DNA of 64,000 bases from an uncultured Chlamydiae bacterium (GCA_963754655.1 CAVWGN010000001.1:1888001-1952000), one strand, 5' to 3'. Positions 5,753 to 63,661 are shown, counted from the first letter of the stretch. Translations and numbers: made by a program. The notes: generated by a model from the letters alone, not told the origin.

Positions 5753-7276
5753 TTAACTTGCTATAAGATTGTAGCAGCCGGTTGAGTCAAACTTTTTTAA
5801 GCTTTTGGGAAGCTTGTCCAACGAGGCTATATTAGTGTATCCTACATTAAGCTTTTCTAGCTTTGAAAAAGACTCATCAAGCTTTTGAAAGGATTCTGCC
5901 GTAAGAGACTCGCATCCCTTTAAGTCAAGCTCTTTTAAGCTTTTGGGGAGCTTGTCTAGGGAGGCTATCGAAGTAGATGCTATATTAAGCTTTTCTAGCA
6001 TTGAAAAGGACTCATCAAGCTTTTGAAAGGATTCTGCTGTAAGAAGCCGGCATCTCTCTAAGTCAAGTTCTTTTAAATTTTTGGGGAGCTTGTCTAGGGA
6101 GGCTATTTCAGTCGATCCTACATTAAGCTTTTCTAGCTTTGAAAAGGACTCATCAAGCTTTTGAAAGGATTCTACTATTGTAAGAGCCATGCATTTGTAT
6201 AAGTTAAGCTCTTTTAAGTTTTTGGGGAGCTTGTCCAGGGAGCCTATGTGAGTGCCTCCTACATTAAGCTTTTCTAGCATTGAAAAGGACTCATCAAGCT
6301 TTTGAAAGGATTCTGCCTTAAGAGAATGGCATGCCGTTAAGTTAAGCTCTTTTAAGCTTTTGGGGAGCTTGTCTAGGGAAGCTATGTGAGTAAATGATAC
6401 ATTAAGCTTTTCTAACTTTGAAAAGGACTCATCAAGCTTTTGAAAGGCTTCTGCCGTAAGAGACCTGCATCCTTCTAAGTTAAGCTCTTTTAAGTTTTTG
6501 GGGAGCTTGTCTAGGGAGGCTATGTCAGTCGATCCTACATTAAGCTTTTCTAGCTTTGAAAAAGAAGATAAATCTAATTTCTCTATTGGAGTAGTGCCTA
6601 ATAGAGTCAGGGATCGAAGATTGGGAAATGCTTGTTGTAATCTTCTGAGTTTTTCATTATCTAAGCTTGTAAAATTGGAGAGATCGAGTGTAGTGATTTC
6701 TAGCTTTGAAAAAGAAGATAAATCTAATTTCTCTATTGGAGTAGTGCCCGATAGAGTCAGGGATCGAAGATTGGGACAGGCTTGTTGTAATCTTCTGAGT
6801 TTTTCATTATCTAAGCTTGTAAAATTGGAGAGATCGAGTGTAGTGATTTCTTCTCCAAATTGAAAGATAGCCTCAAATCTTTGCTTAGGAGAAAGGTTAC
6901 TATCTAACAAGTTAAAAGCTATTAATTTTCCCATAATTTGTGAATAGATGTCCATTGAACCCGCTGCCTCAAGCAACTCAGGATAGCGTATATAATGTGG
7001 AGAAGGATTGTCTAAATACTGCATGATTTGCTTCCAAAGATTTTGATCTTCGGGTTGAATCTTAAGTTGTTGAAGTAAGTTTTTAACTTCCTGTGCAGTT
7101 TCTTGTGAAGACAAAGAAAAGGCTGCTTGTCTTAAAAAATCTTGAATAATGAAATTAATTTTTTCTAAATTTTTCGTTTTATGTGAAGAAACCTTCTCAC
7201 TATTATAAGTGTTGATTAATTCCTTAAAAGAAACTTCGATAGACGAAGGTAAATGGTAAGAATGAGTCGGATCCAT
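5753..7276 (-). CDS. LRR protein, array copy 1 (intact)
   Basis: ~140-aa N-terminal domain, duplicated 50-aa block, 46-aa super-repeats, terminal cap KKFDSTGCYNLIAS. Confidence 0.9.
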   Translation of the reverse strand: MDPTHSYHLPSSIEVSFKELINTYNSEKVSSHKTKNLEKINFIIQDFLRQAAFSLSSQETAQEVKNLLQQLKIQPEDQNLWKQIMQYLDNPSPHYIRYPELLEAAGSMDIYSQIMGKLIAFNLLDSNLSPKQRFEAIFQFGEEITTLDLSNFTSLDNEKLRRLQQACPNLRSLTLSGTTPIEKLDLSSFSKLEITTLDLSNFTSLDNEKLRRLQQAFPNLRSLTLLGTTPIEKLDLSSFSKLEKLNVGSTDIASLDKLPKNLKELNLEGCRSLTAEAFQKLDESFSKLEKLNVSFTHIASLDKLPKSLKELNLTACHSLKAESFQKLDESFSMLEKLNVGGTHIGSLDKLPKNLKELNLYKCMALTIVESFQKLDESFSKLEKLNVGSTEIASLDKLPKNLKELDLERCRLLTAESFQKLDESFSMLEKLNIASTSIASLDKLPKSLKELDLKGCESLTAESFQKLDESFSKLEKLNVGYTNIASLDKLPKSLKKFDSTGCYNLIAS

Positions 7277-14465: not shown

Positions 14466-16316
14466 GGCTGGGATGAGAAAACAAAAAAATATTTAACAAC
14501 TAATTATTAGAACGCTTTTCCTCCTATTTTAAATTCGCTTGGCTTTTTAAAAAGAGGCTTTTATAATTGATTGCTCAAAATTAGATGAGGCATAAAATGG
14601 ATTCAAAAAGCACTCAAAAGCATGAGCGTCCTTCAGATATACGTAAACAAGTGAAGCATTACCAGGAAAGTCGCGATGAATGGAAGCAAAGAAACGCAGA
14701 AAAAAGAACTAAGATTCAAGCTCTAATGACTGATAAGAAACGATTAGGAGAAAGGCTACAAAAGGAACAAGATAATGTCTTGGCATTAAACAAACAGATA
14801 AAATGCCTTCAGTCGAGATTAGAAGAGGTAGAAGAGAAAAGTAAAATCAAAGATAAGCAAATTGATGAATTAAAAAAAAACTTGTGCAATAATTGAGCAA
14901 GAAATTAGCAACAATCGAAGGGTCGCTCGACATCAATATCCTATATTATTTATATTTTTTGTGATTTCACTTGCATTAGCTGCAATAGCATTTAGAGCGA
15001 TTCAGCGAATTTTCATCTCCATGCAGAGTTGTAACATTCCAATATTTAAATATTTCAATTTCCAGCCTTCATGGAAAAGCGTCGAATTGTGGTTTTTACG
15101 ATATGGGCTTTACAAGCTTATAAAGGCTAAGGAAAAGGCTTCAGATTGGATTATCCTTGTTGATTTTAAAGTTCAAGCTGGTTACCAAAAGTGCTTAATA
15201 GTTCTTGGAGTTCAATTAAGTACATTACAAAGTAAGTTTGAAAAAAGGGGCAGCTTTGATATTCATCATGAAGATTTCCAACCACTAGCGCTACAACCCA
15301 TGAATTCATCAACTGGTGAAAAAGTTGCGCATGTTTTAGAAGAAATATCGGAAAAAATTGGCCCATTTCTGCAGATAGTGGCAGATCATGGCAGTGATGT
15401 AAATAAAGGTGTAAGACTATATTGCCAAAACCATGAAAAAACAATAAACACCTATGATGTGGTCCATAAACTAGCAATTCTATTAAAAAAGGAACTGGAA
15501 AAAGATGATACTTGGAAACACATAATTCAATTGATTACAGATACAAAACAAAAGACAAAACAGAGTCCAGAGGCTTTTTTGAGCCCTCCCAAACAAAGAG
15601 AAAAAGCGCGATTCATGAATGCTGATATTTTAATTGATTGGCTACAAGATATTTTAAACCTTCTTCAAATGCAAGAGACGATTCCCCATTTAGATATAAA
15701 TAGATTAAAAGATAAAGCTGGTTGGATAGTTGATTTCGAAGAAGTCATTGAAAAATATGCTCAGATGATAGAAATCATTCGTTTGGCAAGGCATTTAGTA
15801 AGAACTGAAGGTCTTCATAGACGAAGCTATGCGACTTTTTTTCTTAAAGCAAGACTTCACTTTAGAAGTTTGAAACCAGAAGCACTACATTTGGCAAAAG
15901 AGATTTTTTATTTTTTGAAACAGGAAGGTAGAGTGCTATCCAAGGGACAGGTGTTAGTGGGAAGCAGCGAAGGAATAGAGTCTTTGATAGGAAGACAGAA
16001 AATAATAGTAGAGAGAACCAAAGCGACATCTAGTATAACTAAAAGTATCCTAAGTCTTGCAGGAATGGTTGGGGAAAATAATTGTGATATCTTACAAGAG
16101 GCTTTAGAAACGGTGTCAGTCGAAATGTTGGAGGAATGGGAAGAAACATGGATTGGCAAAACGGATTTAGCAAAACGAAAAGAAGTTTTGAGTTTGGGCA
16201 AAGTAAATTCAGATGTCATTGAACTTACTATAAAATCAAATAAATTGGAACCAGAACCGTTAGCGATTTTAGCTGTGTAAAAATCGGTTTTTAGCCCTCG
16301 TTTTCTCATCCCAGCC
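14466..16316 (+). mobile_element. Unclassified IS-like element with two ORFs (14585-14896 coiled coil; 14961-16280 putative DDE transposase)
   Basis: TIR GGCTGGGATGAGAAAAC; target duplication centred on CCTGG (length ambiguous); acidic motifs LVDF, VADHGSD, SSEGIES. Confidence 0.8.
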
Positions 16317-16610
16317 CTGGGCTATTTTCTTTGAAGCCTTTCAGGCTATTAAACAAATCGTGCTATTGGTTATTTAAAGATATCACTGATTCTTTAACCT
16401 CACTTACGTAAGGTGACTAAATCATTCATGAGCAAAAATATCCGCCGCTTCCTATTCTCGCTTCTCATATCTGGCATAAAACGTTCATGAGCAAAATATG
16501 TAGCCAGTGCTTGCAATTTATCCTATATTAAACACGATCTTTAATATTTTCAGAAACTCGTGCTCTAACTTTTCTCAGTAAGGCTTTTTTTAAAGAAATC
16601 AGCGCTTGAA

Positions 16611-18396
16611 TTAACTTGCTATAAGATTGTAGCAGCCGGTTGAGTCAAACTTTTTAAGCTTTTGGGAAGCTTGTCCAACGAGGCTATATTAGTGTATCCT
16701 ACATTAAGCTTTTCTAGCTTTGAAAAAGACTCATCAAGCTTTTGAAAGGATTCTGCCGTAAGAGACTCGCATCTCTCTAAGTCAAGCTCTTTAAGCTTTT
16801 GGGGGGCTTGTCTAAGGAGGCTATGTCAGTCCCTCTTACATTAAGCTTTTCTAGCATTGAAAAGGACTCATCAAGCTTTTGAAAGGATTCTGCTGTAAGA
16901 AGCCGGCATCTGTCTAAGTCAAGCTCTTTTAAGTTTTTGGGGAGCTTGTCTAGGGAGGCTATGTGAGTCGATCCTAAATCGAGATTTTCTAGCTTTGAAA
17001 AGGACTCATCAAGCTTTTGAAAGGATTCTGCTGTAAGATAATTGCAATACCTTAAGTCAAGCTCTTTTAAGTTTTTGGGGAGCTTGTCTAGAGAGGCTAT
17101 GCGAGTCGATCTTACATTAAGCTTTTCTAGCTTTGAAAAGGACTCATCAAGCTTTTGAAAGGCTTTTGCTGTAAGAGACTCGCCGCCGCATCCCATTAAG
17201 TCAAGCTCTTTTAAGTTTTTGGGGAGCTTGTCTAGGGAGGCTATGCGAGTCGAGCCTACATTAAGCTTTTCTAGCTTTGAAAAGGACTCATCAAGCTTTT
17301 GAAAGGACTTTGCTGTAAGAGACTTGCATACCCTTAAGTCAAGCTCTTTTAAGCTTTTGGGGAGCTTGTCTAGGGAGGCTATGCGAGTCGATCTTACATT
17401 AAGCTTTTCTAGCCTTGAAAAAGACTCATCAAGCTTTTGAAAGGATTCTGCTGTAAGAGACTTGCATTCGGCTAAGTCAAGCTCTTTTAAGCTTTTGGGG
17501 AGCTTGTCTAGGGAGGCTATGCGAGTCGAGCCTACATTAAGCTTTTCTAGCATTGGAAAAGACTCATCAAGCTTTTGAAAGGATTCTGCTGTAAGAGTGC
17601 ATCTCTTTAAGTCAAGCTCTTTTAAGTTGTTGGGGAGCTTGTCTAGGGAGGCTATGTAAGTCCTTCTTACATTAAGCTTTTCTAGCTTTGGAAAAGACTC
17701 ATCAAGCTTCTGAAAAGCTTCTGCTGTAAGATAATAGCAGCGCGCTAAGTTAAGCTCTTTTAAGCTTTTGGGGAGCTTGTCTAGGGATGCTATGTCAGTC
17801 GATTCTACACTAAGCTTTTCTAGGTTTGAAAAAGAGGATAAATCTAATTTCTCTATTGGAGTAGTGCCTGATAAAGTCAGAGATCGAAGATTGGGACAGG
17901 CTTGTTGTAATCTTCTGAGTTTTTCATTATCTAAGCTTGTAAAATCAGGAAGATCGAGTGTATTGATTTCTTCTCCAAATTGCAGGGCAGCCTCAAATGT
18001 TTGCTCAGGAGAAGGGTTACTATCTAACAACTCAAAAGCTATTACTTTTCCCATCATTTGTGAATAGATGTCCATTGAACCCGCTGCCTCAAGCAGCTCA
18101 GGGTAGCGAATATCATGTGGAGAAGGATTGTCTAAATACTGCATGATTTGCTTCCAAAGATTTTGATCTTCGGGTTGAATCTTAAGTTGTTGAAGTAAGT
18201 TTTTAACTTCCTGTGCAGTTTCTTGTGAAGGCAAAGAAAAGGCTGCTTGTCTTAAAAAATCTTGAATAATAAGATTAATTTTTTTTAAATTTTTCGTTTT
18301 ATCTGAAGAAACCTTTTCATTATTATAAGTGTTGATTAATTCCTTAAAAGAAACTTCGATAGACGAAGGTAAATGGTAAGAATGATTCGGATCCAT
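16611..18396 (-). pseudogene. LRR array copy 2; frameshifted near the 3' end (ORF 16777-18396)
   Basis: Single-T losses in T runs near 16790 and 16651 relative to other copies; normal terminal cap present out of frame. Confidence 0.85.
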
Positions 18397-20246: not shown

Positions 20247-21536
20247 TCAAACTTTTTTAAGCTTTTCTAGCTTTGAAAAGGACTCATTAAGCTTTTGAAA
20301 GGATTCTGCTGTAAGAAGCCGGCATCTCTCTAAATCAAGCTCTTTTAAGTTTTTGGGGAGCTTGTCTAGGGAGGCTATGTCAGTAAATCCTAAATTAAGC
20401 TTTTCTAGCTTTGAAAAGGACTCATCAAGCTTTTGAAAGGCTTCTGCTGTAAGATAATTGCAATAGCTTAAGTCAAGCTCTTTTAAGTTTTTGGGGAGCT
20501 TGTCTAGAGAGGCTATGTTAGTCGATTTTACATTAAGCTTTTCTAGCTTTGAAAAGGACTCATCAAGCTTTTGAAAGGCTTCTGCCGTAAGAGACGACCT
20601 GCATCCTTCTAAGTTAAGCTCTTTTAAGTTTTTGGGGAGCTTGTCCAGGGAGGTTATATTAGTGAATCCTACATTAAGCTTTTCTAGCTTTGAAAAGGAC
20701 TCATCAAGCTTCTGAAAAGCTTCTGCTGTAAGAGACTTGCATACCATTAAGTTGAGCTCTTTTAAGTTTTTGGGGAGCTTGTCTAGGGAGGTTATATTAG
20801 TGAATCCTACATTAAGCTTTTCTAGCTTTGGAAAGGACTCATCAAGCTTTTGAAAGGATTCTGCTGTAAGAGACTCGCATCCGGCTAAGTTAAGCTCTTT
20901 TAAGTTTTTGGGGAGCTTTTCTAGGGAGGTTATGTTAGTCGATTCTACATTAAGCTTTTCTAGGTTTGAAAAAGAGGATAAATCTAATTTCTCTATTGGA
21001 GTAGTGCCTGATAAAGTCAGAGATCGAAGATTGGGACAGGCTTGTTGTAATCTTCTGAGTTTTTCATTATCTAAGCTTGTAAAATCAGGAAGATCGAGTG
21101 TATTGATTTCTTCTCCAAATTGCAGGGCAGCCTCAAATGTTTGCTCAGGAGAAGGGTTACTATCTAACAACTCAAAAGCTATTACTTTTCCCATCATTTG
21201 CGAATAGATGTCCATTGAACCCGCTGCCTCAAGCAACTCAGGATAGCGAATATCATGTGGAGAAGGATTGTCTAAATACTGCATGATTTGATTCCAAAGA
21301 TTTTGATCTTCGGGTTGAATGTTAAGTTGTTGAAGTAAGTTTTTAACTTCCTGTGCATTTTCTTGTGAAGGCAAAGAAAAGGCTGCTTGTCTTAAAAAAT
21401 CTTGAATAATAAGATTAATTTTTTCTAAATTTTTCGTTTTATCTGAAGAAACCTTCTCACTATTATAAGTGTTGATTAATTCCTTAAAAGAAACTTCGAT
21501 AGACGAAGGTAAATGGTAAGAATGACTCGGATCCAT
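20247..21536 (-). CDS. LRR array copy 3, C-terminally truncated by deletion
   Basis: Same N-terminus and repeats; ends KLEKLKKV without the cap. Confidence 0.8.
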   Translation of the reverse strand: MDPSHSYHLPSSIEVSFKELINTYNSEKVSSDKTKNLEKINLIIQDFLRQAAFSLPSQENAQEVKNLLQQLNIQPEDQNLWNQIMQYLDNPSPHDIRYPELLEAAGSMDIYSQMMGKVIAFELLDSNPSPEQTFEAALQFGEEINTLDLPDFTSLDNEKLRRLQQACPNLRSLTLSGTTPIEKLDLSSFSNLEKLNVESTNITSLEKLPKNLKELNLAGCESLTAESFQKLDESFPKLEKLNVGFTNITSLDKLPKNLKELNLMVCKSLTAEAFQKLDESFSKLEKLNVGFTNITSLDKLPKNLKELNLEGCRSSLTAEAFQKLDESFSKLEKLNVKSTNIASLDKLPKNLKELDLSYCNYLTAEAFQKLDESFSKLEKLNLGFTDIASLDKLPKNLKELDLERCRLLTAESFQKLNESFSKLEKLKKV

Positions 21537-22532: not shown

Positions 22533-25171
22533 TTAACTTGCTATAAGATTGTAGCAGCCGGTTGAGTCAAACTTTTTTAAGCTTTTGGGAAGCTTGTCCA
22601 ACGAGGCTATATTAGTGAATCCTACATTAAGCTTTTCTAGCTTTGAAAAAGACTCATCAAGCTTTTGAAAGGATTCTTCTGTAAGAGCCATGCAGTTAAC
22701 TAAGTCAAGCTCTTTTAAGTTTTTGGGGAGCTTGTCTAGTGATGCTATGTGAGTCGATCCTACATTAAGCTTTTCTAGCTTTATGAAAAAGACTCATCAA
22801 GCTTTTGAATGGATTCTGTTTTAAGGGAATGCAACCGATAGAGAGGTCAAAATGGATTTAACTAAATTATATTGCAGTGTAGATGATTTTTGGAAGTCAT
22901 TTAAACAAGAATGGGATAAGCATTTGATTGATAATGGCAAAACAAAGCGAGGGCCTGAACCAGAATTATCAATTCCAGAGATGATGACAATTGTGATTTT
23001 ATTTCATCAATCGAATTATCGAACATTTAAATATTTTTATGACTACGTTTGTAAGTATTTACGAAGAGATTTTCCAAAATTAATTAGCTATAGCCGTTTT
23101 GTTTATTTAATGAAGAATTTATTTATTCCATTATTTGCCTACCTTTTAGAGAGAAGAGGAGAGATAACAGGAATTGCTTTTATTGATTCTACATCTCTAG
23201 ATGTTTGCCATAATAAACGCATTAAAAGAAATAAAGTTTTCAAAGGTTTAGCCAAACGTGGAAAAACGACCTCTGGATGGTTCTATGGATTTAAATTACA
23301 TTTGATTATTAATGAGAAAGGAGAAATTTTAGCCTTTCAGCTGACTCCTGGGAATATTGCGGATGTATCTGTTGCTGAAACGTTATCAAAAGGAATTTTT
23401 GGAAAGTTATTCGGTGACAAAGGATATATTTCGGCAGAACTTGCAAAAACAGCTTTTAAAACAAGGACTTGAGTTGTTTACAACTATAAGATCAAATATG
23501 AAGCAAAAGCTCATGAAGTTAACAGATAGAATTCTTCTTAGAAAACGAGCAATAATTGAAACAGTAAATGATCAATTAAAAAATATTTCTCAAATTGAAC
23601 ATACACGTCATAGAAGTGCTGGAAACTTTTTGATCAATCTATTAGCTGGTATTGTAGCTTATACTCATCAGCAAAAAAAGCCATCTATAAATTTAGCTGA
23701 GCAAGATCGTATGTTATTAATGGCTGCATAAAAAACCCAAAACTCAGGTTACATTAAGCTTTTCTAGCTTTGAAAAAGACTCATCAAGCTTTTGAATGGA
23801 TTCTGTTGTAAGAGACCTGCATCCGAGTAAGCTAAGCTCTTTTAAGTTTTTGGGGAGCTTGTCTAGTGATGCTATGTTAGTCAATCCTACATTAAGCTTT
23901 TCTAGCTTTGAAAAAGACTCATCAAGCTTTTGAAATGATTCTGCCGTAAGAGAATTGCAATACGATAAGTCAAGCTTTTTTAAGCTTTTGGGGAGCTTGT
24001 CTAAGGAAGTTATGTCTGTTGATCTTCTTACATTAAGCTTTTCTAGCTTTGAAAAAGACTCATCAAGCTTTTGAAAGGATTGTGCTGTAAGAAGCTGGCA
24101 TCTTTCTAAGTCAAGCTCTTTTAAGCTTTTGGGGAGCTTGTCTAGGGAGGTTATATTAGTGAATCCTACATTAAGCTTTTCTAGCTTTGAAAAGGACTCA
24201 TCAAGTTTTTGAAAGGATTCTGTTGTAAGAGAATAGCATTTCGCTAAGTTAAGTTCTTTTAAGTTTTTGGGGAGCTTGTCTAGGGAGGCTATGTCAGTCG
24301 ATCCTACATTAAGCTTTTCTAGCTTTGAAAAAGACTCATCAAGCTTTTGAAGGGATTCTGCCGTAAGAGACCTGCATAAGTTTAAGTTAAGCTCTTTTAA
24401 GTTTTTGGGGAGCTTGTCTAGGGAGGCTATGTCAGTCGATCCTACATAAAGCTTTTCTAGCTTTGAAAAAGACTCATCAAGCTTTTGAAAGGATTCTGCC
24501 GTAAGAGACCTGCATAAGTTTAAGTTAAGCTCTTTTAAGTTTTTGGGGAGCTTGTCTAGGGAGGCTATATTAGTTAATTCTACATTAAGCTTTTCTAGCT
24601 TTGAAAAAAAGGATAAATCTAATTTCTCTATTGGAGTAGTGCCTGATAAAGTCAGAGATCGAAGATTGGGACAGGCTTGTTGTAATCTTCTGAGTTTTTC
24701 ATTATCTAAGCTTGTAAAATCAGGAAGATTGAGTGTATTGATTTCTTCTCCAAATTGCAGGGCAGCCTCAAATGTTTGCTCAGGAGAAGGGTTACTATCT
24801 AACAACTCAAAAGCTATTACTTTTCCCATCATTTGCGAATAGATGTCCATTGAACCCGCTGCCTCAAGCAACTCAGGATAGCGAATATCATGTGGAGAAG
24901 GATTGTCTAAATACTGCATGATTTGCTTCCAAAGATTTTGATCTTCGGGTTGAATCTTAAGTTGTTGAAGTAAGTTTTTAACTTCCTGTGCAGTTTCTTG
25001 TGAAGGCAAAGAAAAGGCTGCTTGTCTTAAAAAATCTTGAATAATAAGATTAATTTTTTTTAAATTTTTCGTTTTATCTGAAGAAACCTTTTCATTATTA
25101 TAAGTGTTGATTAATTCCTTAAAAGAAACTTCGATAGACGAAGGTAAATGGTAAGAATGATTCGGATCCAT
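22533..25171 (-). pseudogene. LRR array copy 4, interrupted by IS982 (ORF 23744-25171; 3' remnant 22533-22820)
   Basis: LRR repeats and terminal cap resume on the other side of the IS. Confidence 0.85.
22821..23749 (+). mobile_element. IS982-family element, frameshifted transposase (22852-23731), left end missing
   Basis: [44 protein letters not shown]; right end AACTCAGGT with no matching left IR; extra A near 23447. Confidence 0.88.
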
Positions 25172-25799: not shown

Positions 25800-26132
25800 T
25801 TATTGAATTTCTTGAAAGAAATCTTTGATCTTTGCTTCACATTCTTCTTTTGACATATATCCTACAAGGCGGGAAACAACTTTTCCTTTATACATTAAGA
25901 TAGTTGTCGGATAGGCTTTGACCTTTAAAAAGTTGACTAATAACGTCTCTTCATCAGCATCAATTTTAGCAAATTGGCATTCTTTCTTATATTTTTCATG
26001 TAATGTTTCAAAAATGGGAGCAAAATATCTACAAGGACGACACCAGTCTGCATAGACATCAATAATGAAGGCCTTGTCTGATTGTTCAACTTCTTCATGA
26101 AAATTATTTTTGGTGAATTGAATAATTTCCAA
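25800..26132 (-). pseudogene. 5'-truncated thioredoxin duplicate
   Basis: WCRPC domain as at 19025-19357. Confidence 0.75.
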
Positions 26133-26417
26133 AGCTTTTTGGAACTATCTCTTTCTCTTAAACTTTCATAGCCAATTTAAAGATGATCCTGAAATTTGAC
26201 CTCAGACACTTTAACACTTTTTTGAACGATAGAATTTAATAAATCATCCATGACTTGCACATTCGCTTTGGTAATGGAAAAAGAGTGCTTCATATCCTTT
26301 ATTTTTCACAATAATCAAAGCCTAAAGTAGTATTATTTATTTGAATATTAAAAAGATAATGATAAAATATTTATGTGATTAGAATTGCTATTTTTTGTAC
26401 AAAATTAACACCCTAAA

Positions 26418-27063
26418 CCCACGGTAAAGCTTCGATTAAATTTTTAAATCATTTAAAATAATCTTGAATCCGTTTTCAGACCTATCAGCCATAGGATTTG
26501 TTAAAAGATCGCTTAAGTTATCCCATTTATCTGCTAATTTAATTTGAGCAGCTCCTGCTGATTTATAAGGAGCTGTCATAATTTGGAGCTTTTTGCGCTC
26601 CTCTTTAGGAAGAGTTTTATCATCTGTCACTTCTTGTACAAAAGCAGTTATTCGCTCTCCGAATAAATCTAGAAGTTCTTGATAAGAAGTTTTCAGTATC
26701 TTCCAATGTATCATGGAGTAAACCTGCGATAATGATAGAGGGATCTCGAATGCTTCCTACCGTGACCAAGTGATGCGCGACTGAAAGAGGATGGACGACA
26801 TAAGGTGTTTGTGCCTCATCTTTGCGCACTTGCTTGTGATGTTTATGAGCAGCAAATTCGACTGCTTTTAGACTGAGACGTACATCTTCTTCAATCCAAC
26901 CTTTCCCTCTTTCATAAACAACCATTAAAACCTTTTGAAATTGAATAGACTTTTCTTGTATCTGAAAGACAGGAGGGCCAAAATATTCTTTCACAACCTC
27001 ATCTAACCTTTTAAAATGCTGCTGTATTCTTTGAAGAGTAGAGGGATGGGGACGAATAAGCAT
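26418..27063 (-). pseudogene. Frameshifted HD-hydrolase duplicate with intact 5' end
   Basis: Near-identical to 4765-5409 but with the extra T near 26692 and an altered 3' end. Confidence 0.88.
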
Positions 27064-27406: not shown

Positions 27407-29200
27407 TTAACTTGCTATAAGATTGTAGCAGCCGGTTGAGTCAAACTTTTTTAAGCTTTTGGGAAGCTTGTCCAACGAGGCTATATTAGTGTATCCTACA
27501 TCAAGCTTTTCTAGCTTTGAAAAAGACTCATCAAGCTTTTGAAAGGATTCTGCCGTAAGAGACTCGCATCTCTGTAAGTCAAGCTCTTTTAAGCTTTTGG
27601 GGAGCTTGTCTAAGGAGGCTATATCACTGAATCCTACATTAAGCTTTTCTAGCATTGAAAAGGACTCATCAAGCTTTTGAAAGGCTTCTGCTGTAAGAAG
27701 CCAGCATCTCTCTAAGTCAAGCTCTTTTAAGCTTTTGGGGAGCTTGTCTAGGGAGGCTATTCCAGTGAATCCTACATCAAGCTTTTCTAGCTTTGAAAAG
27801 GACTCATCAAGCTTTTGAAAGGACTCTAAGGAATCTATTGTAAGATCCGTGCATTTATATAAGTTAAGCTCTTTTAAGTTTTTGGGGAGCTTGTCTAGGG
27901 AGCCTATGTGAGTCGATCCTAAATCGAGCTTTTCTAGCTTTGAAAAGGACTCATCAAGCTTTTGAAAGGATTCTGCTGTAAGATAATTGCAATACCTTAA
28001 GTCAAGCTCTTTTAAGTTTTTAGGGAGCTTGTCTAGGGAGATTATATTAGTGTATCCTACATTAAGCTTTTCTAGCTTTGAAAAGGACTCATCAAGCTTT
28101 TGAAAGGATTCTGCCGTAAGAGACTCGCATCTCTCTAAGTCAAGCTCTTTTAAGTTGTTGGGGAGCTTGTCTAGGGAGGCTATGTGAGTAAATCCTAAAC
28201 TAAGCTTTTCTAGCTTTGGAAAAGACTCATCAAGCTTCTGAAAAGCTTCTGCTGTAAGATATGTGCATCCGGCTAAGTTAAGTTCTTTTAAGTTGTTGGG
28301 GAGCTTGTCTAGGGAGGTTATGTTAGTCGAGCCTACATTAAGCTTTTCTAGCATTGAAAAGGACTCATCAAGCTTTTGAAAGGATTCTGCCTTAAGAGAA
28401 TGGCATGCCGTTAAGTCAAGCTCTTTTAAGTTGTTGGGGAGCTTGTCTAGGGAGGCTATGTAAGTAAATCCTAAATTAAGCTTTTCTAGCTTTGGAAAAG
28501 ACTCATCAAGCTTTTGAAAGGATTCTGCTGTAAGATAATAGCAGCGCGCTAAGTTAAGCTCTTTTAAGCTTTTGGGGAGCTTGTCTAGGGATGCTATGTC
28601 AGTCGATTCTACACTAAGCTTTTCTAGGTTTGAAAAAGAGGATAAATCTAATTTCTCTATTGGAGTAGTGCCTGATAAAGTCAGAGATCGAAGATTGGGA
28701 CAGGCTTGTTGTAATCTTCTGAGTTTTTCATTATCTAAGCTTGTAAAATCAGGAAGATCGAGTGTAGTGATTTCTTCTCCAAATTGCAGGGCAGCCTCAA
28801 ATGTTTGCTCAGGAGAAGGGTTACTATCTAACAACTCAAAAGCTATTACTTTTCCCATAATTTGTGAATAGATGTCCATTGAACCCGCTGCCTCAAGCAA
28901 CTCAGGATAGCGAATATCATGTGGAGAAGGATTGTCTAAATACTGCATGATTTGATTCCAAAGATTTTGATCTTCGGGTTGAATCTTAAGTTGTTGAAGT
29001 AAGTTTTTAACTTCCTGTGCAGTTTCTTGTGAAGGCAAAGAAAAGGCTGCTTGTCTTAAAAAATCTTGAATAATAAGATTAATTTTTTCTAACTTTTTCG
29101 TTTTATCTGAAAAAACCTTCTCATTATTATAAGTGTTGATTAATTCCTTAAAAGAAACTTCGATAGACGAAGGTAAATGGTAAGAATGATTCGGGTCCAT
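27407..29200 (-). CDS. LRR array copy 5 (intact, 597 aa)
   Basis: Eight 26-aa Cys-type modules; terminal cap present. Confidence 0.9.
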   Translation of the reverse strand: MDPNHSYHLPSSIEVSFKELINTYNNEKVFSDKTKKLEKINLIIQDFLRQAAFSLPSQETAQEVKNLLQQLKIQPEDQNLWNQIMQYLDNPSPHDIRYPELLEAAGSMDIYSQIMGKVIAFELLDSNPSPEQTFEAALQFGEEITTLDLPDFTSLDNEKLRRLQQACPNLRSLTLSGTTPIEKLDLSSFSNLEKLSVESTDIASLDKLPKSLKELNLARCYYLTAESFQKLDESFPKLEKLNLGFTYIASLDKLPNNLKELDLTACHSLKAESFQKLDESFSMLEKLNVGSTNITSLDKLPNNLKELNLAGCTYLTAEAFQKLDESFPKLEKLSLGFTHIASLDKLPNNLKELDLERCESLTAESFQKLDESFSKLEKLNVGYTNIISLDKLPKNLKELDLRYCNYLTAESFQKLDESFSKLEKLDLGSTHIGSLDKLPKNLKELNLYKCTDLTIDSLESFQKLDESFSKLEKLDVGFTGIASLDKLPKSLKELDLERCWLLTAEAFQKLDESFSMLEKLNVGFSDIASLDKLPKSLKELDLQRCESLTAESFQKLDESFSKLEKLDVGYTNIASLDKLPKSLKKFDSTGCYNLIAS

Positions 29201-29524
29201 ATTTTCTTCTCTCTTTTGATTATGATTAAAAATTTAATACAATAATTAATAAATAATTTATTATGTTTACAAATGCTATTATACAAACTATTTTAATTTT
29301 TAAGCGAGTACTAAAGACATTTTTTATTTAATTGACATTTGTATTAGATTTAATTTCAACTTGAGATTGATTTAATATCAATCAATTTAATAAAAAAATT
29401 GATTCGATATTAAATCTATGGAAGGAAATAGTTTTTCTTTCAAAAAAGTTTATCTAAATTGATCATAAAAATGAACAAAAATAAAAAATGCTGTCTTTTG
29501 TTAGCATAAAGATGACCGAATTGC

Positions 29525-29816
29525 CAGGGTGTTTTTACTAAACATATTTGACACTTGCAGCCCTTCAGGCTGTATGACACAAGCCACTCATAACCAAGGC
29601 GTTATCTTAGTCTATTGCACTTACAGCCTTTCAGGCTGATAGAGAACCTCAGCTTACAATATTAGACCGCAAGTCTAAAAGTAAAATAGGAAGTTCCCTG
29701 CATTAGCCTGAAGGGCTTTAAGTGCAATATACCAGGACAACGCCCTGGGTATGAGTGGGTTGTGTCACGCAGCCTGAAGGGCTGCAAGTGTCAAATATTT
29801 TTAGTAAAAAACACTG
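29525..29816. mobile_element. Palindromic CAGGG-ended MITE, copy 5 (short-unit type)
   Basis: As copies 1 and 3. Confidence 0.8.
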
Positions 29817-30140
29817 ATTGTTCAACTTCTTCATGAAAATTATTTTTGGTGAATTGAATAATTTCCAAAGCTTTTTTGGAACTATCTCTTTCTCTTAAAC
29901 TTTCATAGCCAATTTGAAGATGATCCTGAAATTTGACCTCAGACACTTTAACGCTTTTTTGAACGATAGAATTTAATAAATCATCCATGACTTGCACATT
30001 CCGCTTTGGTAATGGAAAAAGAGTGCTTCCATGGCTTCCTATTCTCGCTTCTCCTATCTGGCATAAAATGTTCATGAGCAAAATATGCAGTTAGTGCAAT
30101 TGATCCCATTTAAATAGGACCTTTAATATTTTCAAGGCTA

Positions 30141-31033: not shown

Positions 31034-32740
31034 TTAACTTGCTATAAGATTGTAGCAGCCGGTTGGGTCAAACTTTTTTAAGCTTTTGGGAAGCTTGTCC
31101 AACGAGGCTATATTAGTGTATCCTACATTAAGCTTTTCTAGCTTTGAAAAAGACTCATCAAGCTTTTGAAAGGATTCTGCCGTAAGAGACTCGCATCTCT
31201 CTAAGTCAAGCTCTTTTAAGCTTTTGGGGAGCTTGTCTAAGGAGGTTATATTAGTGAATCCTACATTAAGCTTTTCTAGCTTTGAAAAGGACTCATCAAG
31301 CTTTTGAAAGGATTCTGCTGTAAGAAGCCGGCATCTGTCTAAGTCAAGCTCTTTTAAGTTTTTGGGGAGCTTGTCTAGGGAGGCTAGGCGAGTCGATCCT
31401 AAATTGAGCTTTTTTAAGTTTTTGGGGAGCTTGTCTAGGGAGGCTATGTGAGTCGATCCTAAATCGAGCTTTTCTAGCTTTGAAAAGGACTCATCAAGCT
31501 TTTGAAAGGATTCTGCTGTAAGATAATTGCAATACCTTAAGTCAAGCTCTTTTAAGTTTTTGGGGAGCTTGTCTAGGGAGATTATATTAGTGAATCCTAC
31601 ATTAAGCTTTTCTAGCTTTGAAAAGGACTCATCAAGTTTTTGAAAGGATTCTGCCGTAAGAGACTTGCATCTCTCTAAGTCAAGCTCTTTTAAGCTTTTG
31701 GGGAGCTTGTCTAGGGAGGCTATATGAGTCGATGCTAAATCGAGCTTTTCTAGCTTTGGAAAGGACTCATCAAGCTTTTGAAAGAATTCTGCTGTAAGAG
31801 ACTTGCATCCGGCTAAGTCAAGCTCTTTTAAGTTGTTGGGGAGCTTGTCTAGGGAGGTTATATTAGTGAATCCTACATTAAGCTTTTCTAGCTTTGAAAA
31901 GGACTCATCAAGCTTTTGAAAGAATTCTGCTGTAAGAGACTTGCATCCGGCTAAGTCAAGCTCTTTTAAGTTGTTGGGGAGCTTGTCTAGGGAGGTTATG
32001 TGAGTAAATCCTAAATTAAGCTTTTCTAGCTTTGGAAAAGACTCATCAAGCTTCTGAAAAGCTTCTGCTGTAAGATATGTGCATCCTGCTAAGTTAAGCT
32101 CTTTTAAGTTTTTGGGGAGCTTGTCTAGGGATGCTATGTCAGTCGATCCTACATCAAGCTTTTCTAGCTTTGCAAAAGAGGATAAATCTAATTTCTCTAT
32201 TGGAGTAGTGCCTGATAAAGTCAGAGATCGAAGATTGGGACAGGCTTGTTGTAATCTTCTAAGTTTTTCATTATCTAAGCTTGTAAAATTGGAGAGATTG
32301 AGTGTAGTGATTTCTTCTCCAAATTGCAAGGTAGCCTCAAATCTTTGCTCAGGAGAAGGGTTACTATCTAACAACTCAAAAGCTATTACTTTTCCCATAA
32401 TTTGTGAATAGATGTCCATTGAACCCCCTGCCTCAAGCAGCTCAGGGTAGCGAATATCATGTGGAGAAGGATTGTCTAAATACTGCATGATTTGCTTCCA
32501 AAGATTTTGATCTTCGGGTTGAATCTTAAGTTGTTGAAGTAAGTTTTTAACTTCCTGTGCAGTTTCTTGTGAAGGCAAAGAAAAGGCTGCTTGTCTTAAA
32601 AAATCTTGAATAATAATATTAATTTTTTCTAAATTTTTCGTTTTATCTGAAGAGACCTTCTCACTATTATAAGTGTTGATTAATTCCTTAAAAGAAACTT
32701 CGATAAACGAAGGTAAATGGTAAAAATGATTCGGATCCAT
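31034..32740 (-). CDS. LRR array copy 6 (intact, 568 aa)
   Basis: Seven 26-aa modules, one doubled 20-aa module, terminal cap present. Confidence 0.9.
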   Translation of the reverse strand: MDPNHFYHLPSFIEVSFKELINTYNSEKVSSDKTKNLEKINIIIQDFLRQAAFSLPSQETAQEVKNLLQQLKIQPEDQNLWKQIMQYLDNPSPHDIRYPELLEAGGSMDIYSQIMGKVIAFELLDSNPSPEQRFEATLQFGEEITTLNLSNFTSLDNEKLRRLQQACPNLRSLTLSGTTPIEKLDLSSFAKLEKLDVGSTDIASLDKLPKNLKELNLAGCTYLTAEAFQKLDESFPKLEKLNLGFTHITSLDKLPNNLKELDLAGCKSLTAEFFQKLDESFSKLEKLNVGFTNITSLDKLPNNLKELDLAGCKSLTAEFFQKLDESFPKLEKLDLASTHIASLDKLPKSLKELDLERCKSLTAESFQKLDESFSKLEKLNVGFTNIISLDKLPKNLKELDLRYCNYLTAESFQKLDESFSKLEKLDLGSTHIASLDKLPKNLKKLNLGSTRLASLDKLPKNLKELDLDRCRLLTAESFQKLDESFSKLEKLNVGFTNITSLDKLPKSLKELDLERCESLTAESFQKLDESFSKLEKLNVGYTNIASLDKLPKSLKKFDPTGCYNLIAS

Positions 32741-33987: not shown

Positions 33988-34317
33988 ACCCACGGTAAAG
34001 CTTCGATTAAATTTTTAAATCATTTAAAATAATCTTGAATCCGTTTTCAGACCTATCAGCATAGGATTTGTTAAAAGATTGCTTAAGTTATCCCATTTAT
34101 CTGCTAATTTAATTTGAGCAGCTTCTGCTGATTTATAAGGAGCTGTCATAATTTGGAGCTTTTTGCGCTCCTCTTTAGGAAGAGTTTTATCATCTGTCAC
34201 TTCTTGTACAAAAGCAGTTATTCGCTCTCCGAATAAATCTAGAAGTTCTTGATAAGAAGTTTTCAGTATCTTCCAATGTATCATGGAGTAAACCTGCGAT
34301 AATGATAGAGGGATCTC
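33988..34317 (-). pseudogene. HD-hydrolase 3' fragment
   Basis: Carries the shared extra T; joined to LRR copy 7 at GGATCTC/TCTAGC. Confidence 0.85.
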
Positions 34318-35582
34318 TCTAGCTTTGAAAAGGACTCATCAAGCTTTTGAAAGGATTCTGCTGTAAGAAGCCGGCATCTCTCTAAGTCAAGCTCTTTTAA
34401 GTTTTTGGGGAGCTTGTCTAGGGAGGCTATGTCAGTAAATCCTAAATTAAGCTTTTCTAGCTTTGAAAAGGACTCATCAAGCTTTTGAAAGGATTCTGCT
34501 GTAAGATAATTGCAATAGCTTAAGTCAAGCTCTTTTAAGTTTTTGGGGAGCTTGTCTAGAGAGGCTATGTTAGTCGATTTTACATTAAGCTTTTCTAGCT
34601 TTGAAAAGGACTCATCAAGCTTTTGAAAGGCTTCTGCCGTAAGAGACCTGCATCCTTCTAAGTTAAGCTCTTTTAAGTTTTTGGGGAGCTTGTCTAGGGA
34701 GGCTATGTCAGTCGATCCTACATTAAGCTTTTCTAGCTTTGAAAAGGACTCATCAAGCTTTTGAAAGGACTCTGCTGTAAGAAGCCGGCATCTCTCTAAG
34801 TCAAGCTCTTTTAAGCTTTTGGGGAGCTTGTCTAGGGCTATGTCAGTCCCTCTTACATTAAGCTTTTCTAGCTTTGAAAAAGACTCATCAAGCTTTTGAA
34901 AGGATTCTGCTGTAAGAGAATGGCATGCCGTTAAGTTAAGTTCTTTTAAGTTTTTGGGGAGCTTTTCTAGGGAGGTTATGTCAGTCGATTCTACACTAAG
35001 CTTTTCTAGGTTTGAAAAAGATGATAAATCTAATTTCTCTATTGGAGTAGTGCCTGATAAAGTCAGAGATCGAAGATTGGGACAGGCTTGTTGTAATCTT
35101 CTGAGTTTTTCATTATCTAAGCTTGTAAAATCAGGAAGATCGAGTGTATTGATTTCTTCTCCAAATTGCAGGGCAGCCTCAAATGTTTGCTCAGGAGAAG
35201 GGTTACTATCTAACAACTCAAAAGCTATTACTTTTCCCATCATTTGCGAATAGATGTCCATTGAACCCGCTGCCTCAAGCAACTCAGGATAGCGAATATC
35301 ATGTGGAGAAGGATTGTCTAAATACTGCATGATTTGATTCCAAAGATTTTGATCTTCGGGTTGAATCTTAAGTTGTTGAAGTAAGTTTTTAACTTCCTGT
35401 GCAGTTTCTTGTGAAGGCAAAGAAAAGGCTGCTTGTCTTAAAAAATCTTGAATAATAAGATTAATTTTTTCTAAATTTTTCGTTTTATCTGAAGAAACCT
35501 TCTCACTATTATAAGTGTTGATTAATTCCTTAAAAGAAACTTCGATAGACGAAGGTAAATGGTAAGAATGAGTCGGATCCAT
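34281..35582 (-). CDS. LRR array copy 7, C-terminally truncated by deletion into the HD fragment
   Basis: Ends KLERSLYHYRRFTP, which is out-of-frame HD sequence. Confidence 0.8.
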   Translation of the reverse strand: MDPTHSYHLPSSIEVSFKELINTYNSEKVSSDKTKNLEKINLIIQDFLRQAAFSLPSQETAQEVKNLLQQLKIQPEDQNLWNQIMQYLDNPSPHDIRYPELLEAAGSMDIYSQMMGKVIAFELLDSNPSPEQTFEAALQFGEEINTLDLPDFTSLDNEKLRRLQQACPNLRSLTLSGTTPIEKLDLSSFSNLEKLSVESTDITSLEKLPKNLKELNLTACHSLTAESFQKLDESFSKLEKLNVRGTDIALDKLPKSLKELDLERCRLLTAESFQKLDESFSKLEKLNVGSTDIASLDKLPKNLKELNLEGCRSLTAEAFQKLDESFSKLEKLNVKSTNIASLDKLPKNLKELDLSYCNYLTAESFQKLDESFSKLEKLNLGFTDIASLDKLPKNLKELDLERCRLLTAESFQKLDESFSKLERSLYHYRRFTP

Positions 35583-37214: not shown

Positions 37215-38063
37215 TTATTGAATTTCTTGAAAGAAATCTTTGATCTTTGCTTCACATTCTTCTTTTGACATATATCCTACAAGGCGGGAAACAACCTTTC
37301 CTTTATACATTAAGATAGTTGTCGGATAGGCTTTGACCTTTAAAAAGTTGACTAATAACGTCTCTTCATCAGCATCAATTTTAGCAAATTGGCATTCTTT
37401 CTTATATTTTTCATGTAATGTTTCAAAAATGGGAGCAAAATATCTACAAGGACGACACCAGTCTGCATAGACATCAATAATGAAGGCCTTGTCTGATTGT
37501 TCAACTTCTTCATGAAAATTATTTTTGGTTAATTGAAGAATTTCCAAAGCCTTGTTGGAACTCTCTCTTGAACTTTCATCGCCAATTTGAAGTTGATCCT
37601 GAGATTTGACCTCAGATACTTCAACGCTTTGTTGAATGATAGAATCCAATAAATCATCCATGACTTGCACATTCGCTTTGGTAATGGAAAAAGAGTGATC
37701 CATATACTTAATAAAAGCCTCATTTTCAAAGATTTGACGCAGCTGATGAATTTCTTCATCAGAGAAGGTGCCATAAGGTTGCATCAATTGTTGGCGCGCC
37801 TCTTTTGTGTGAATCGCCTGTCGTAAGCGTTTAACAACGAGCTCTAATGGTAATTTTTTTTGACTTTTATCAATTGCCTGTGCCGTATACATGGCTGCAA
37901 ACTTATCAAATGTCTGTTCTCTAAGAAAGCTTTGATCTAATATCATATTTAAATCTGCGTCGCGCGTTGTCGAAATTTTTGGTTTTTCAGCCTCTCGACC
38001 ATCTAAACCAATGTTCACTATTAAACTAAAACAAACCGCTAAAACATAGAAGCTGAATTTCAT
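37215..38063 (-). CDS. Exported thioredoxin-domain protein (intact parent of the fragments)
   Basis: Signal peptide MKFSFYVLAVCFSLIVNIG, helical N-domain, C-terminal Trx with WCRPC. Confidence 0.88.
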   Translation of the reverse strand: MKFSFYVLAVCFSLIVNIGLDGREAEKPKISTTRDADLNMILDQSFLREQTFDKFAAMYTAQAIDKSQKKLPLELVVKRLRQAIHTKEARQQLMQPYGTFSDEEIHQLRQIFENEAFIKYMDHSFSITKANVQVMDDLLDSIIQQSVEVSEVKSQDQLQIGDESSRESSNKALEILQLTKNNFHEEVEQSDKAFIIDVYADWCRPCRYFAPIFETLHEKYKKECQFAKIDADEETLLVNFLKVKAYPTTILMYKGKVVSRLVGYMSKEECEAKIKDFFQEIQ

Positions 38064-39655: not shown

Positions 39656-40795
39656 TCAAACTTCAAGACTTTTTAGCCTCAAAGAAGCAAGCGTTTGCAA
39701 CAAGGATAATGATGTCAAGTCCAGGTCCTGGCAGATCTTTAATTTAAGCTCTTTTACGCTTTTAGGGAGCATGTCTAGGGATGCTATATGAGTCAATCCT
39801 ACATTAAGCTTTTCTAGCTTTAAAAAAGAACCAAGCATTTGAAAGGATTCTGCTGTAAGAGCCGCGCATCCTTCTAAGTCAAGCTCTTTTAAGCTTTTGG
39901 GGAGCTTGTCTAGGGAGACTATCTTATTAAATTTCACAACAAGTTTTTCTAGCCTTGAAAAAGACTCATCAAGCTTTTGAAATGATTCTGCCGTAAGAGA
40001 ATAGCAATACGTTAAGTCAAGCTCTTTTAAGCTTTTGGGGAGCTTGTCTAGAGAGGCTATGTTAGTCAATCCTACATTAAGCTTTTCTAGCCTTGAAAAA
40101 GACTCATCAAGTTTTTGAAAGGATTCTGCTGTAAGAGAATGGCAATTCCATAAGTTAAGCTCTTTTAAGCTTTTGGGGAGCATATCTAGGGAGTCTATAT
40201 TAGCCGATTTTAAAGTAAGATTTTCTAGCTGTGAAAAAGAAGATAAATCTAATTCCTTTGAAGTGCTTGATAGAGTCAAGGATCGAAGATTGGGACATGC
40301 ATGTTGTAATCTTCTGAGTTGTTCATTATCTAATATTGTAAAAGTGGAGAGATCGAGTGTAGTGATTTCTTCTCTAAATTGCAGGGCAGCCTCAAATCTT
40401 TGCCCAGGAGTTGGGTTACTATCTAACAAGTGAAAAGCTAATAATTTTCCCATAATTTGTGAATAGGTCTCCATTGAATCTGCTGCCTTAAGCAGCTCAG
40501 GGTAGCGAATATAATGTGGAGAAGGATTGTCTAGGTACTGCATGATTTGATTCCAAAGATTTTGATCTTCTGGTTGAATCTTAAGTTGTTGAAGTAAGTT
40601 TTTAACTGCCTGTGCATTTTCTTCTGATTGCAAAAAAAAGGCTGCGTCTCTTAAAAAATCTTGAGTAATAAGATTAATTTTTTCTAAATTTTTCGTTTTA
40701 TCTGAAGGGACTTTCTCACTATTATAAGTGTTGATTAATTCCTGCAAATAAACATCCTTAGATGAATGTAAATGATAAGAATGACTCGAATCCAT
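39656..40795 (-). CDS. LRR protein, diverged paralog (copy 8)
   Basis: Homologous N-domain and 46-aa super-repeats; different C-terminus. Confidence 0.88.
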   Translation of the reverse strand: MDSSHSYHLHSSKDVYLQELINTYNSEKVPSDKTKNLEKINLITQDFLRDAAFFLQSEENAQAVKNLLQQLKIQPEDQNLWNQIMQYLDNPSPHYIRYPELLKAADSMETYSQIMGKLLAFHLLDSNPTPGQRFEAALQFREEITTLDLSTFTILDNEQLRRLQHACPNLRSLTLSSTSKELDLSSFSQLENLTLKSANIDSLDMLPKSLKELNLWNCHSLTAESFQKLDESFSRLEKLNVGLTNIASLDKLPKSLKELDLTYCYSLTAESFQKLDESFSRLEKLVVKFNKIVSLDKLPKSLKELDLEGCAALTAESFQMLGSFLKLEKLNVGLTHIASLDMLPKSVKELKLKICQDLDLTSLSLLQTLASLRLKSLEV

Positions 40796-63089: not shown

Positions 63090-63661
63090 AATGCTGCTCG
63101 AATGGCATCAATGCGCGCAAGATAATTAGTTAGCTTATTTTCTACTTGATTAACATCTAAATCGTCCTCTGGTATAACAGAAAGACGTTGAAAACAGATG
63201 GCTAGATAAAATTTATCACGATGCGGGCCATCTCCATGTCGATTCAGGTTCCTTTCAAAAGCACTATAATCTCGGCGCGCTTCATATGGAGTAAAAATGC
63301 CCATGAAGCCACATCCTGTCATCAAGGCTCCATATCCTAATGCACGAGCACTATCGAAAGCATTTTCATACACCGCAATTTGAGCTTCTTGCGAAAGACT
63401 TTGTCCGTCTAAATAGCGATAGACTTCTGAAATAATCAAAAAAACAGATAAAGCAAGACAATAAACGCTCCGGATGGCTGAAATGAGAGGTGTTAAACAG
63501 ACCAAAGCAAAGCATTTAAAACGAATAAGAAAAGCTGGATCATGATTAAAAACTTCTCCAGAAGGAATATGATAAGGAAATTCATACTCTTTTTCACTAT
63601 ACTGAAGAAAAAGGGATCCCCACTCTGCATTGGCCTGTTTTTCTAGCCTAATCCCTGTCAT
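63029..63661 (-). CDS. Hypothetical membrane-associated protein
   Basis: Long bilobed hydrophobic stretch near residues 45-80. Confidence 0.6.
   Translation of the reverse strand: MTGIRLEKQANAEWGSLFLQYSEKEYEFPYHIPSGEVFNHDPAFLIRFKCFALVCLTPLISAIRSVYCLALSVFLIISEVYRYLDGQSLSQEAQIAVYENAFDSARALGYGALMTGCGFMGIFTPYEARRDYSAFERNLNRHGDGPHRDKFYLAICFQRLSVIPEDDLDVNQVENKLTNYLARIDAIRAALCACSIHQLLVELRVIPAKT

Follow-up and report, generated by a model that had tools for sequence, protein, structure and literature searches.

Which process keeps the repeats of a bacterial gene almost identical in DNA while a few codons in each repeat vary widely? This question is raised by g6, a complete open reading frame (ORF) coding for a leucine-rich repeat (LRR) protein of 597 residues, at positions 27407–29200 (minus strand) of the window, the whole stretch of 64,000 nucleotides analysed here. 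An earlier note on this DNA missed the main point: g6 is one of eight paralogues, of which it is the longest, that exchange their repeat modules.

The protein begins with a helical region. Residues 11–89 form four helices, common to a homologue in a genome of the same genus (G002), and residues 92–125, modelled with low confidence, lie where relatives carry an F-box-like motif. Beyond two cap repeats comes an array in which nine A units of 20 residues, an LRR of bacterial type, alternate with eight B units, an LRR of cysteine type (26 residues in seven of them, 29 in the other). Tandem Repeats Finder describes it as 8.6 copies of a 138-nucleotide period with 84% matches. Over all paralogues, 46 of the 52 A-type segments are exactly 20 residues long. 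The A unit has the LxxLxVxxNxLxxL..LP pattern of the bacterial class (consensus sequences of both classes were taken from PMC2946307): L1, L4, I11, L14, L17 and P18 are invariant, position 6 is V or L, and position 9 is T. Pro15 of that class (LP(D/E)LP) is absent, aspartate standing there in 39 of 41 distinct units and glutamate in two. As for the B unit, C9, L12, L20 and F24 are invariant in 38 of 38, and it shares with the cysteine-containing class a length of 25–27, Cys9, hydrophobic positions 12, 17, 20 and 24, and a convex helix. Positions 12–14 read LTA in most units, with no Asp14, and depart there from the ITD motif of the class.

The AlphaFold model of g6 (pLDDT 84) is an LRR solenoid with predicted strands at unit positions 3–5 and helices in B units only; none is assigned to the A units, as expected of the bacterial class, which has no convex alpha-helix. 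Its best structural matches are FBXL2 (Z 28.3, rmsd 3.4), Leptospira LIC11098 (Z 26.6) and RipG4 (Z 26.4, rmsd 2.7). Foldseek with the full model returned only TLR7/8/9, at an uninformative TM of 0.36–0.49.

Regular alternation of LRR classes has precedents, ribonuclease inhibitor with its A/B alternation being one. Another is the STT super-repeat of SLRPs, TLR7–9 and FLRTs, which likewise has the 20-residue bacterial class as one partner but joins it to a 'typical' unit, where the cluster has a cysteine-containing one (PMC2946307). The 20/26 alternation and the two class assignments advanced in the earlier note are therefore borne out, with Asp for Pro15 and LTA for ITD as deviations. Its view that the alternation is unusual stands in part. 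A super-repeat pairing bacterial and cysteine-containing classes was not found in the open literature searched; yet alternation as such is published for STT proteins, and it is not unique to g6, because it recurs in the G002 homologue (26+20) and in four other genes there (~24+20).

The eight tandem paralogues (g1, g2, g3, g5, g6, g7, g8 and g9) lie between 5.7 and 40.8 kb of the window; what was initially numbered g4 proved to be the 3′ end of g5, severed by an IS982-like element. No further copy of the N-terminus or of the 46-residue unit exists in the 3.16-Mb genome and, among its 26 ORFs with at least five LRR motifs, the 20/26 spacing is found in these eight only. Elsewhere in the genome (C1:2537619-2547052), two LRR ORFs have a spacing of 24/25 residues and an internal identity of 0.45–0.56. 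Four genes are complete (g1, g6, g7 and the diverged g9) and four of the eight are broken at the 3′ end (g2, g3, g5 and g8); each has its own leader and start. The cap duplication of g1 (window 6547–6851, 97% identity) is in frame.

The cluster grew through tandem segmental duplication. Blocks of 1–2.4 kb, 90–99% identical, contain the beginning of the gene, the palindromic element that precedes it, and pieces of thioredoxin and HD genes. The palindromic element of g6 (29525–29810) has 109-nucleotide arms at 29532–29640 and 29702–29810, with copies at 7599, 18721, 21862, 25496, 33066 and 36991; Rfam gave no match over window positions 4000–42000, this element included. An IS5-like element is inserted in, beside or near two of the copies. 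The full HD gene (4705–5409) resembles a stand-alone SpoT-type hydrolase of the small alarmone hydrolase kind, and its fragments are scattered through the cluster. At least four types of insertion sequence are present there (window 12409, 30131, 36150; 8561, 13251; 14501; 22823), with 24 genome matches for the IS5-like, three for the IS4/Tn5-like and one for the IS982-like type; a 439-residue ORF counted among them (14961–16280) has 11 genome matches and itself matches nothing in Pfam or NCBIfam.

Table 1. Features of g6, its paralogues and the duplicated flanking DNA (window coordinates)
Feature	Coordinates	Strand	Remarks
g6, N-terminal part	28772..29200	-	aa 1–143
g6, two cap LRRs (26 + 22 aa)	28628..28771	-	near-invariant across paralogues
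g6, super-repeat array	27455..28627	-	9 A + 8 B units; variable codons 5, 7, 8, 10, (11/12)
g6, short C-terminal end	27407..27454	-	common to g1, g6, g7 and the broken tails of g2, g5
g1	5753..7276	-	complete, 507 aa; 150-bp tandem duplication of cap
g2	16610..18396	-	open for 539 aa; frame lost near 3′ end, end approximate
g3	20247..21536	-	429 aa, 3′-truncated; abuts HD-gene fragment
g5	22533..25171	-	475 aa open (23744–25171); IS982-like element ~22823–23749; 3′ tail 22533–22822
g7	31034..32740	-	complete, 568 aa; one hybrid unit begins as B, goes on as A
g8	34281..35582	-	433 aa, 3′-truncated; runs into HD-gene-derived sequence
g9	39656..40795	-	379 aa, most diverged; N-terminal part 80% identical; different upstream DNA and C-terminus
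Upstream block co-duplicated with g1–g8	29201..29820		AT-rich leader + 280-bp palindromic element
HD-domain (SpoT-hydrolase-like) gene fragment	26417..27063	-	full copy 4705–5409; passenger of segmental duplications
Thioredoxin-domain gene 3′ fragment	25800..26132	-	full copy 37215–38063; passenger of segmental duplications

Where, then, does the variation sit? Over the 35 canonical A+B modules of the eight paralogues, DNA identity is 0.941 in the framework and 0.607 at the variable codons; at the protein level the figures are 0.905 and 0.326, and 34 of the 35 modules are distinct. Taken by itself, g6 has a DNA identity of 0.91 in the A framework and 0.63 at the variable A codons; for B the two values are 0.94 and 0.53. 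Diversity is concentrated at A5, A7, A8, A10 and A12 (6, 6, 6, 9 and 6 residues) and at B7, B8 and B10 (12, 9 and 9), with three residues each at B5 and B11. Position x2 has a single residue in all 46 A and 38 B units, and x3 has two residues in each class. Frozen scaffold codons are interspersed with the variable ones (B6, B9, B12 and A11, one codon each), and a few framework sites are di- or trimorphic (A6, A19, A20, B16, B25 and B26). All three bases of particular codons vary while adjacent codons stay frozen. Of the eight in-frame indels in the unit list of the arrays, four fall at positions 7–11, three at 12–15 and one further on, in g9. No two genes have the same surface code.

In LRR geometry, the strand occupies positions 3–5 and an ascending loop follows; Toll-like receptors bind through this ascending lateral surface (PMC4598782). 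As the modelled strands of g6 are at positions 3–5, only x5 among the variable sites would be on the strand, while x7, x8, x10 and x11 would be in the ascending loop. The variable stripe is thus, as predicted from model secondary structure and published geometry, the end of the concave strand together with the ascending lateral surface. Confinement to the concave face, as first proposed, was too broad a statement: it suits x5 but neither the loop positions nor the frozen x2 and x3. That the framework is nearly invariant even in DNA is correct, whereas variation of the x positions applies to x5, x7, x8 and x10 and fails for x2, which is invariant, and for x3, nearly so. As for the clustering of indels, seven of the eight lie at positions 7–15. 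Among the variants and indels quoted for this ORF only TIDSLES belongs to it; EG, SY, MV, NL and RS come from neighbouring paralogues, as do CRSSL (g3), CGGESL and CT-L (g2), and RRSTD (g5).

Recombination, inside single genes and from one gene to another, has blended the 138-bp modules into a common pool. Indeed, module identity is the same within genes (0.877, 69 pairs) as between genes (0.876, 526 pairs), which is what a single recombining pool implies. Genes g1 and g8 share one 138-nucleotide module without a single difference, though it does not occupy the same position in the two. The nearest module lies in another gene for 29 of 35 modules, and at another position in 19 of those 29. In a four-gamete test 435 of 946 informative site pairs were incompatible, rising with distance (p=0.001, all sites); for framework sites only, the first three distance classes gave 2/25, 7/39 and 29/63. 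The halves flanking the invariant cysteine occur in crossed combinations, ER and AG each being found with both ES and KS. The genome has recA and mutS.

Could the mosaic be largely an artefact of assembling a repetitive region? Single-base losses of frame in homopolymer runs in the tail of g2 would fit such an account, and the sparse contigs of four sequencing runs do not span the array. We hold it to be very improbable, as mis-assembly could reorder modules but could not create an excess of non-synonymous change at specific codons; moreover, 34 distinct sequences are found among the 35 modules, and the reading frame is kept along the arrays. In a soil run, a short contig agrees with g1 at eight of eight listed differences, although it may come from a related sample.

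A more elaborate idea is that a programmed diversifier writes the variable codons, be it DGR-like, VLR-like or a dedicated conversion from donors to expression sites. The way in which all three bases of certain codons vary beside frozen ones would be expected of it, as would near-identical modules common to broken and complete copies. The genome, 96.7% complete, has nevertheless no match to the reverse transcriptase family PF00078 (the control matched in 3 of 14 genomes), and positions with at least three bases have a consensus of G in 11 cases, A in 9, C in 9 and T in 2, which is no adenine rule. Alleles connect mostly by single-base steps, no hairpin couples the two sides of the patch, and every gene has its own leader and start. 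We regard such a device as quite improbable; in the absence of reverse transcriptase, adenine rule and hairpin coupling, ordinary recombination with selection suffices.

Three specific candidates were rejected. A DGR was set aside for want of a reverse transcriptase and because variation is not restricted to adenine. Template-switch hairpins were dismissed as the source of patch alleles, the folding energy of real patches being equal to that of shuffled halves (P 0.58 and 0.80). A VLR-like arrangement of incomplete germline gene and cassettes was discarded as all modules are within eight genes with their own starts and the genome has no other cluster of units.

Selection was assessed on a class of x codons fixed in advance (positions 2, 3, 5, 7, 8 and 10 of the LxxLxLxxN/CxL consensus). 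The first test used a maximum-likelihood tree built from the distinct units of canonical length; segments with indels or stops, 6 among the 52 of type A and 11 among the 49 of type B, were excluded. Omega at x is 3.6 for A units (2dL 26 against omega=1) and 4.9 for B units (2dL 44), and framework omega is 0.61 (A) and 0.43 (B). Because recombination inflates tree-based tests, we added a tree-free one, our own implementation of an allele-frequency likelihood, with or without g9 and with two sets of codon frequencies. It gave omega of 4.5–5.7 at x (2dL 28–35) and ~0.4 in the framework, in four settings out of four. In 28 simulations with neutral x codons, linked or freely recombining, the largest 2dL was 4.3, with omega of 0.56–1.56. 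A conservative count favouring synonymous paths put the ratio of non-synonymous change at x to synonymous change at all sites at only 1.5 (p=0.036) to 2.1 (p=0.0003). The earlier proposal of diversifying selection therefore survives the comparison of x with framework (3.6–5.7 against 0.4–0.61 over both tests), the neutral simulations remaining far below.

It might be argued that there is no positive selection at all: a tandem amplification would be decaying in a genome rich in mobile elements, with surface codons drifting or mutating faster while conversion homogenises the rest. Half of the genes are broken, as this account would have it, and insertion sequences are found all through the cluster. 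In seven paralogues the first 143 codons have accumulated 27 non-synonymous and 9 synonymous steps, a ratio of ~1.2 without visible constraint that recent duplication or decay may account for; within x codons, synonymous changes are about three times as dense as in the framework. Against this, neutral simulations do not reproduce the signal; x2 and x3, predicted to be exposed too, are frozen; and eight of eight array indels are in frame. Scaffold codons within the patch have one synonymous step on 13.7 sites, to be compared with 0.31 per site in the framework, which excludes both a local hypermutable tract and ancient preserved patches. Set directly against neutral codon-level hypermutation, selection is favoured only moderately on the a-priori sites (2dL 4.6–7.8), and by 2dL of 9–15 on x5, x7, x8 and x10, sites picked after viewing the data; the five-parameter fits did not fully converge. 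Constraint on the scaffold's own synonymous sites, if present, would make the omega values too high. On balance a cluster without positive selection appears improbable: the scaffold is under purifying selection, and x5, x7, x8 and x10 are under positive selection.

As to the origin of this design, one of three genomes of the same genus, G002, has a homologue that shares the helical domain at the N-terminus (42% over residues 8–93) and alternates its units in the same 26+20 fashion, but is not syntenic with the cluster of the window; several further genes there (four) have ~24+20 units. DNA identity between units is 0.51–0.57 in these five homologues against 0.86 in the window cluster; hence the alternation is old in the lineage and the homogenisation new. 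A tandem trio of LRR genes in G002 (G002:C1:474000-482000), coding for 560–611 residues with ~24+20 alternation, has a hydrophobic N-terminal segment in place of the helical domain.

Ahead of the LRRs, an F-box-like segment is found in the G002 homologue and in two relatives from metagenomes (Pfam E 0.047–0.088, below the cut-off; profile E 1.5e-4), a weak call made from sequence. The same segment of the window family is unrelated sequence, with no Pfam match at E≤10 and an F-box profile E of 0.18. No BTB or RING/U-box domain of the PEX1/NEX1b type matched in Pfam at E≤1 within the N-terminal 143 or 190 residues of g6; its N-terminus matches Pfam Rx_N at E 0.028, below the cut-off, and scans of the protein with Pfam and NCBIfam reveal no nucleotide-binding, NTPase or TIR domain, nor any other domain known from signalling. 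The modelled N-terminus of the homologue (pLDDT 76.5) has no Foldseek match at E≤0.001 and, in a VIA comparison, aligns with generic helical repeats only (best Z 9.5). As no specific fold was matched, neither the F-box nor the Rx_N hint is confirmed structurally.

In searches for close relatives elsewhere, none of 143 candidate stretches was confirmed in metagenome contigs; of 131 candidates from genome contigs one was, through the motif 'EAFQKLDES', which an unrelated protein happens to contain; a protein search gave 10 matches at E≤1e-10, four of them from the window itself; and the N-terminal 165 residues of the homologue yielded none out of 541 candidates. The N-terminal domain (profile positions 1–85) was found in the source genome and G002 only, out of 400 genomes of the order with at most six candidates scored in each, so that not found does not mean absent; it is also present in two metagenomic proteins. 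An Atlas search with the paralogue P0025 provided leads only (best score 0.89). Other LRR proteins of the F-box-like kind, in which two classes alternate or long repeats are near-identical (P0030, P0031 and P0004, one of them named from Mycoavidus), suggest that the design recurs in intracellular bacteria.

What would such proteins do? Among the genes of the genome are one for the chlamydial histone Hc1, four for nucleotide translocases and one for a type III export gate (TIGR01399, 914.9 bits for a cut-off of 692), and there are two secretin matches. Histone, translocases and gate together indicate a chlamydia-type intracellular bacterium, and we infer that it belongs to the Parachlamydiaceae; Chlam_OMP6 had no match in the genome, the controls being silent as well. 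The first 25 residues of the paralogues contain 8–10 S/T/P/N, a composition only suggestive of a type III signal. In related LRR families of chlamydiae the type III signals are functional (PMC4209131). The best overall explanation, which we consider somewhat probable, is a cluster of LRR binders of such a bacterium. Its evolutionary part is very probable: homologous recombination, by unequal crossover and gene conversion in the near-identical scaffold, would deal point-mutated patches in new orders, and selection would keep the new surfaces. The proteins would descend from F-box-LRR genes with loss of the F-box, and would probably enter a eukaryotic host, probably a protist, through the type III system, there to bind variable host proteins as blockers or decoys, and not as ubiquitin-ligase (SCF) adaptors. 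This putative effector role, to which we lean without much assurance, is proposed from the secretion system of the genome, the F-box-LRR ancestry, the fold neighbours FBXL2 and RipG4, and secretion assays reported for further LRR families of chlamydiae.

The closest description of the cluster comes from fungi. In Podospora anserina about ten HNWD/NWD genes (het-d, het-e) draw on a single pool of WD40 repeats that evolve in concert: repeats are exchanged inside a gene as well as with other genes, and in each repeat four positions on the interaction surface are positively selected (PMC1805685, PMC4986451). The cluster shares both traits, its modules evolving in concert through such exchanges and a few positions of each repeat being under positive selection. 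Mean module identity in a measure of HNWD type (protein) is 0.79 over all pairs and 0.91 for the best partner, the published figure of ~85% having been measured differently. The HNWD proteins, on the other hand, are fungal WD40 propellers with NACHT and death domains, active in allorecognition, while the cluster encodes tandem bacterial two-class LRR solenoids without NTPase. It works like the HNWD repeats but, having no nucleotide-binding domain, it is not an NLR/STAND receptor.

This likeness invites a defensive role with the same evolution, the surfaces recognising invaders or competitors, be they phage proteins within the bacterium or giant viruses and other bacteria sharing its host cell, and the helical N-terminus being the signalling or effector part. 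The same signature marks fungal non-self receptors (PMC1805685), and the like has been proposed for cyanobacterial WRAP proteins (PMC9218822); the Rx_N match, weak as it is, points the same way. We deem this role rather unlikely: the protein lacks an NTPase, TIR or known signalling domain, the N-terminus of the homologue resembles generic helical repeats, and the F-box-like motif of relatives points to the host ubiquitin system.

Returning to the effector reading, the nearest chlamydial counterparts are NEX1 (F-box or RING/U-box with LRR) and PEX1 (BTB with LRR) of the Parachlamydiaceae, for which PMC4209131 reports birth-and-death evolution under purifying selection, with no convincing recombination. 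They too are chlamydial LRR expansions, partly in tandem arrays, with pseudogenes, and their tested members have type III signals (PMC4209131); relatives of the cluster have the F-box-like motif before the LRRs. The cluster differs in its strong concerted evolution and site-specific positive selection, and in that no F-box, U-box or BTB was detected in it. That study used global and pairwise dN/dS (PMC4209131), which would miss selection at specific sites. Ralstonia GALA/RipG proteins, F-box-LRR type III effectors with a single 24-residue class and weak positive selection on the convex side (PMC2244805), are also a bacterial paralogue family with cysteine-type LRR, and RipG4 is among the top fold matches of g6. 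GALA proteins keep the F-box; in the cluster, selection is strong and acts where the strand ends and in the ascending loop. WRAP propellers, which are joined to STAND ATPases and arise anew by amplification of one blade, share near-identical bacterial repeat units, rapid turnover and disrupted copies (PMC9218822), the cluster differing as eight genes with a common pool of two-repeat LRR modules. Protochlamydia lgr genes and the Tetrahymena group III genes also show recent LRR gene duplications and changes in repeat number, but their repeats are of a single class of 28 or 30 residues, not of two classes (20+26). The lgr genes are explained by adjacent concatenation (PMC2216083); the Tetrahymena genes undergo ectopic recombination within and between genes and are reported to be mostly under purifying selection (PMC6564038).

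No publication describing this cluster was found in the open literature searched. The phenomenon is real, statistically strong and mechanistically familiar, its evolutionary recipe being already known from the Podospora HNWD repeats; within the literature searched it is new for the bacterial group and for the repeat architecture. The NEX/PEX study, a systematic one on expansions of chlamydial repeat proteins, doubted an arms race as sole driver since it saw no positive selection or convincing recombination, and noted that there is little opportunity to catch early diversification (PMC4209131). The cluster looks like such an opportunity, with the selected codons identified, and the G002 homologue with its diverged units offers a before/after comparison for the onset of concerted evolution. 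A frozen scaffold with four variable positions per repeat is, besides, a natural modular scaffold for binders. One may go further and imagine a library of variable binders, g1, g6 and g7 being expression sites and the broken copies module donors, where F-box-less binders with new surfaces, antibody-like in effect though unprogrammed, would be made continually and injected to track immune proteins of the host or co-infecting viruses and bacteria. This is speculative and, to our mind, unlikely; were it true, a symbiont population would continually produce new LRR surfaces by recombination.

Other repeats of the window deserve a mention. Inside the cluster, an unrelated F-box-like gene with 24-residue LRR of the CC/GALA type (10572–11873) has near-identical 72-bp repeats (7.2 copies, 84% matches) with residues variable around position 9. 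Towards the end of the window, where two ORFs (61923–63089, 388 aa; 63029–63661, 210 aa) have no match in Pfam or NCBIfam, a TPR-like protein (60615–61760) has 6.4 copies of a 123-bp (41-residue) repeat, 79% identical, with variable residues between fixed blocks, and may be a second concertedly evolving repeat.
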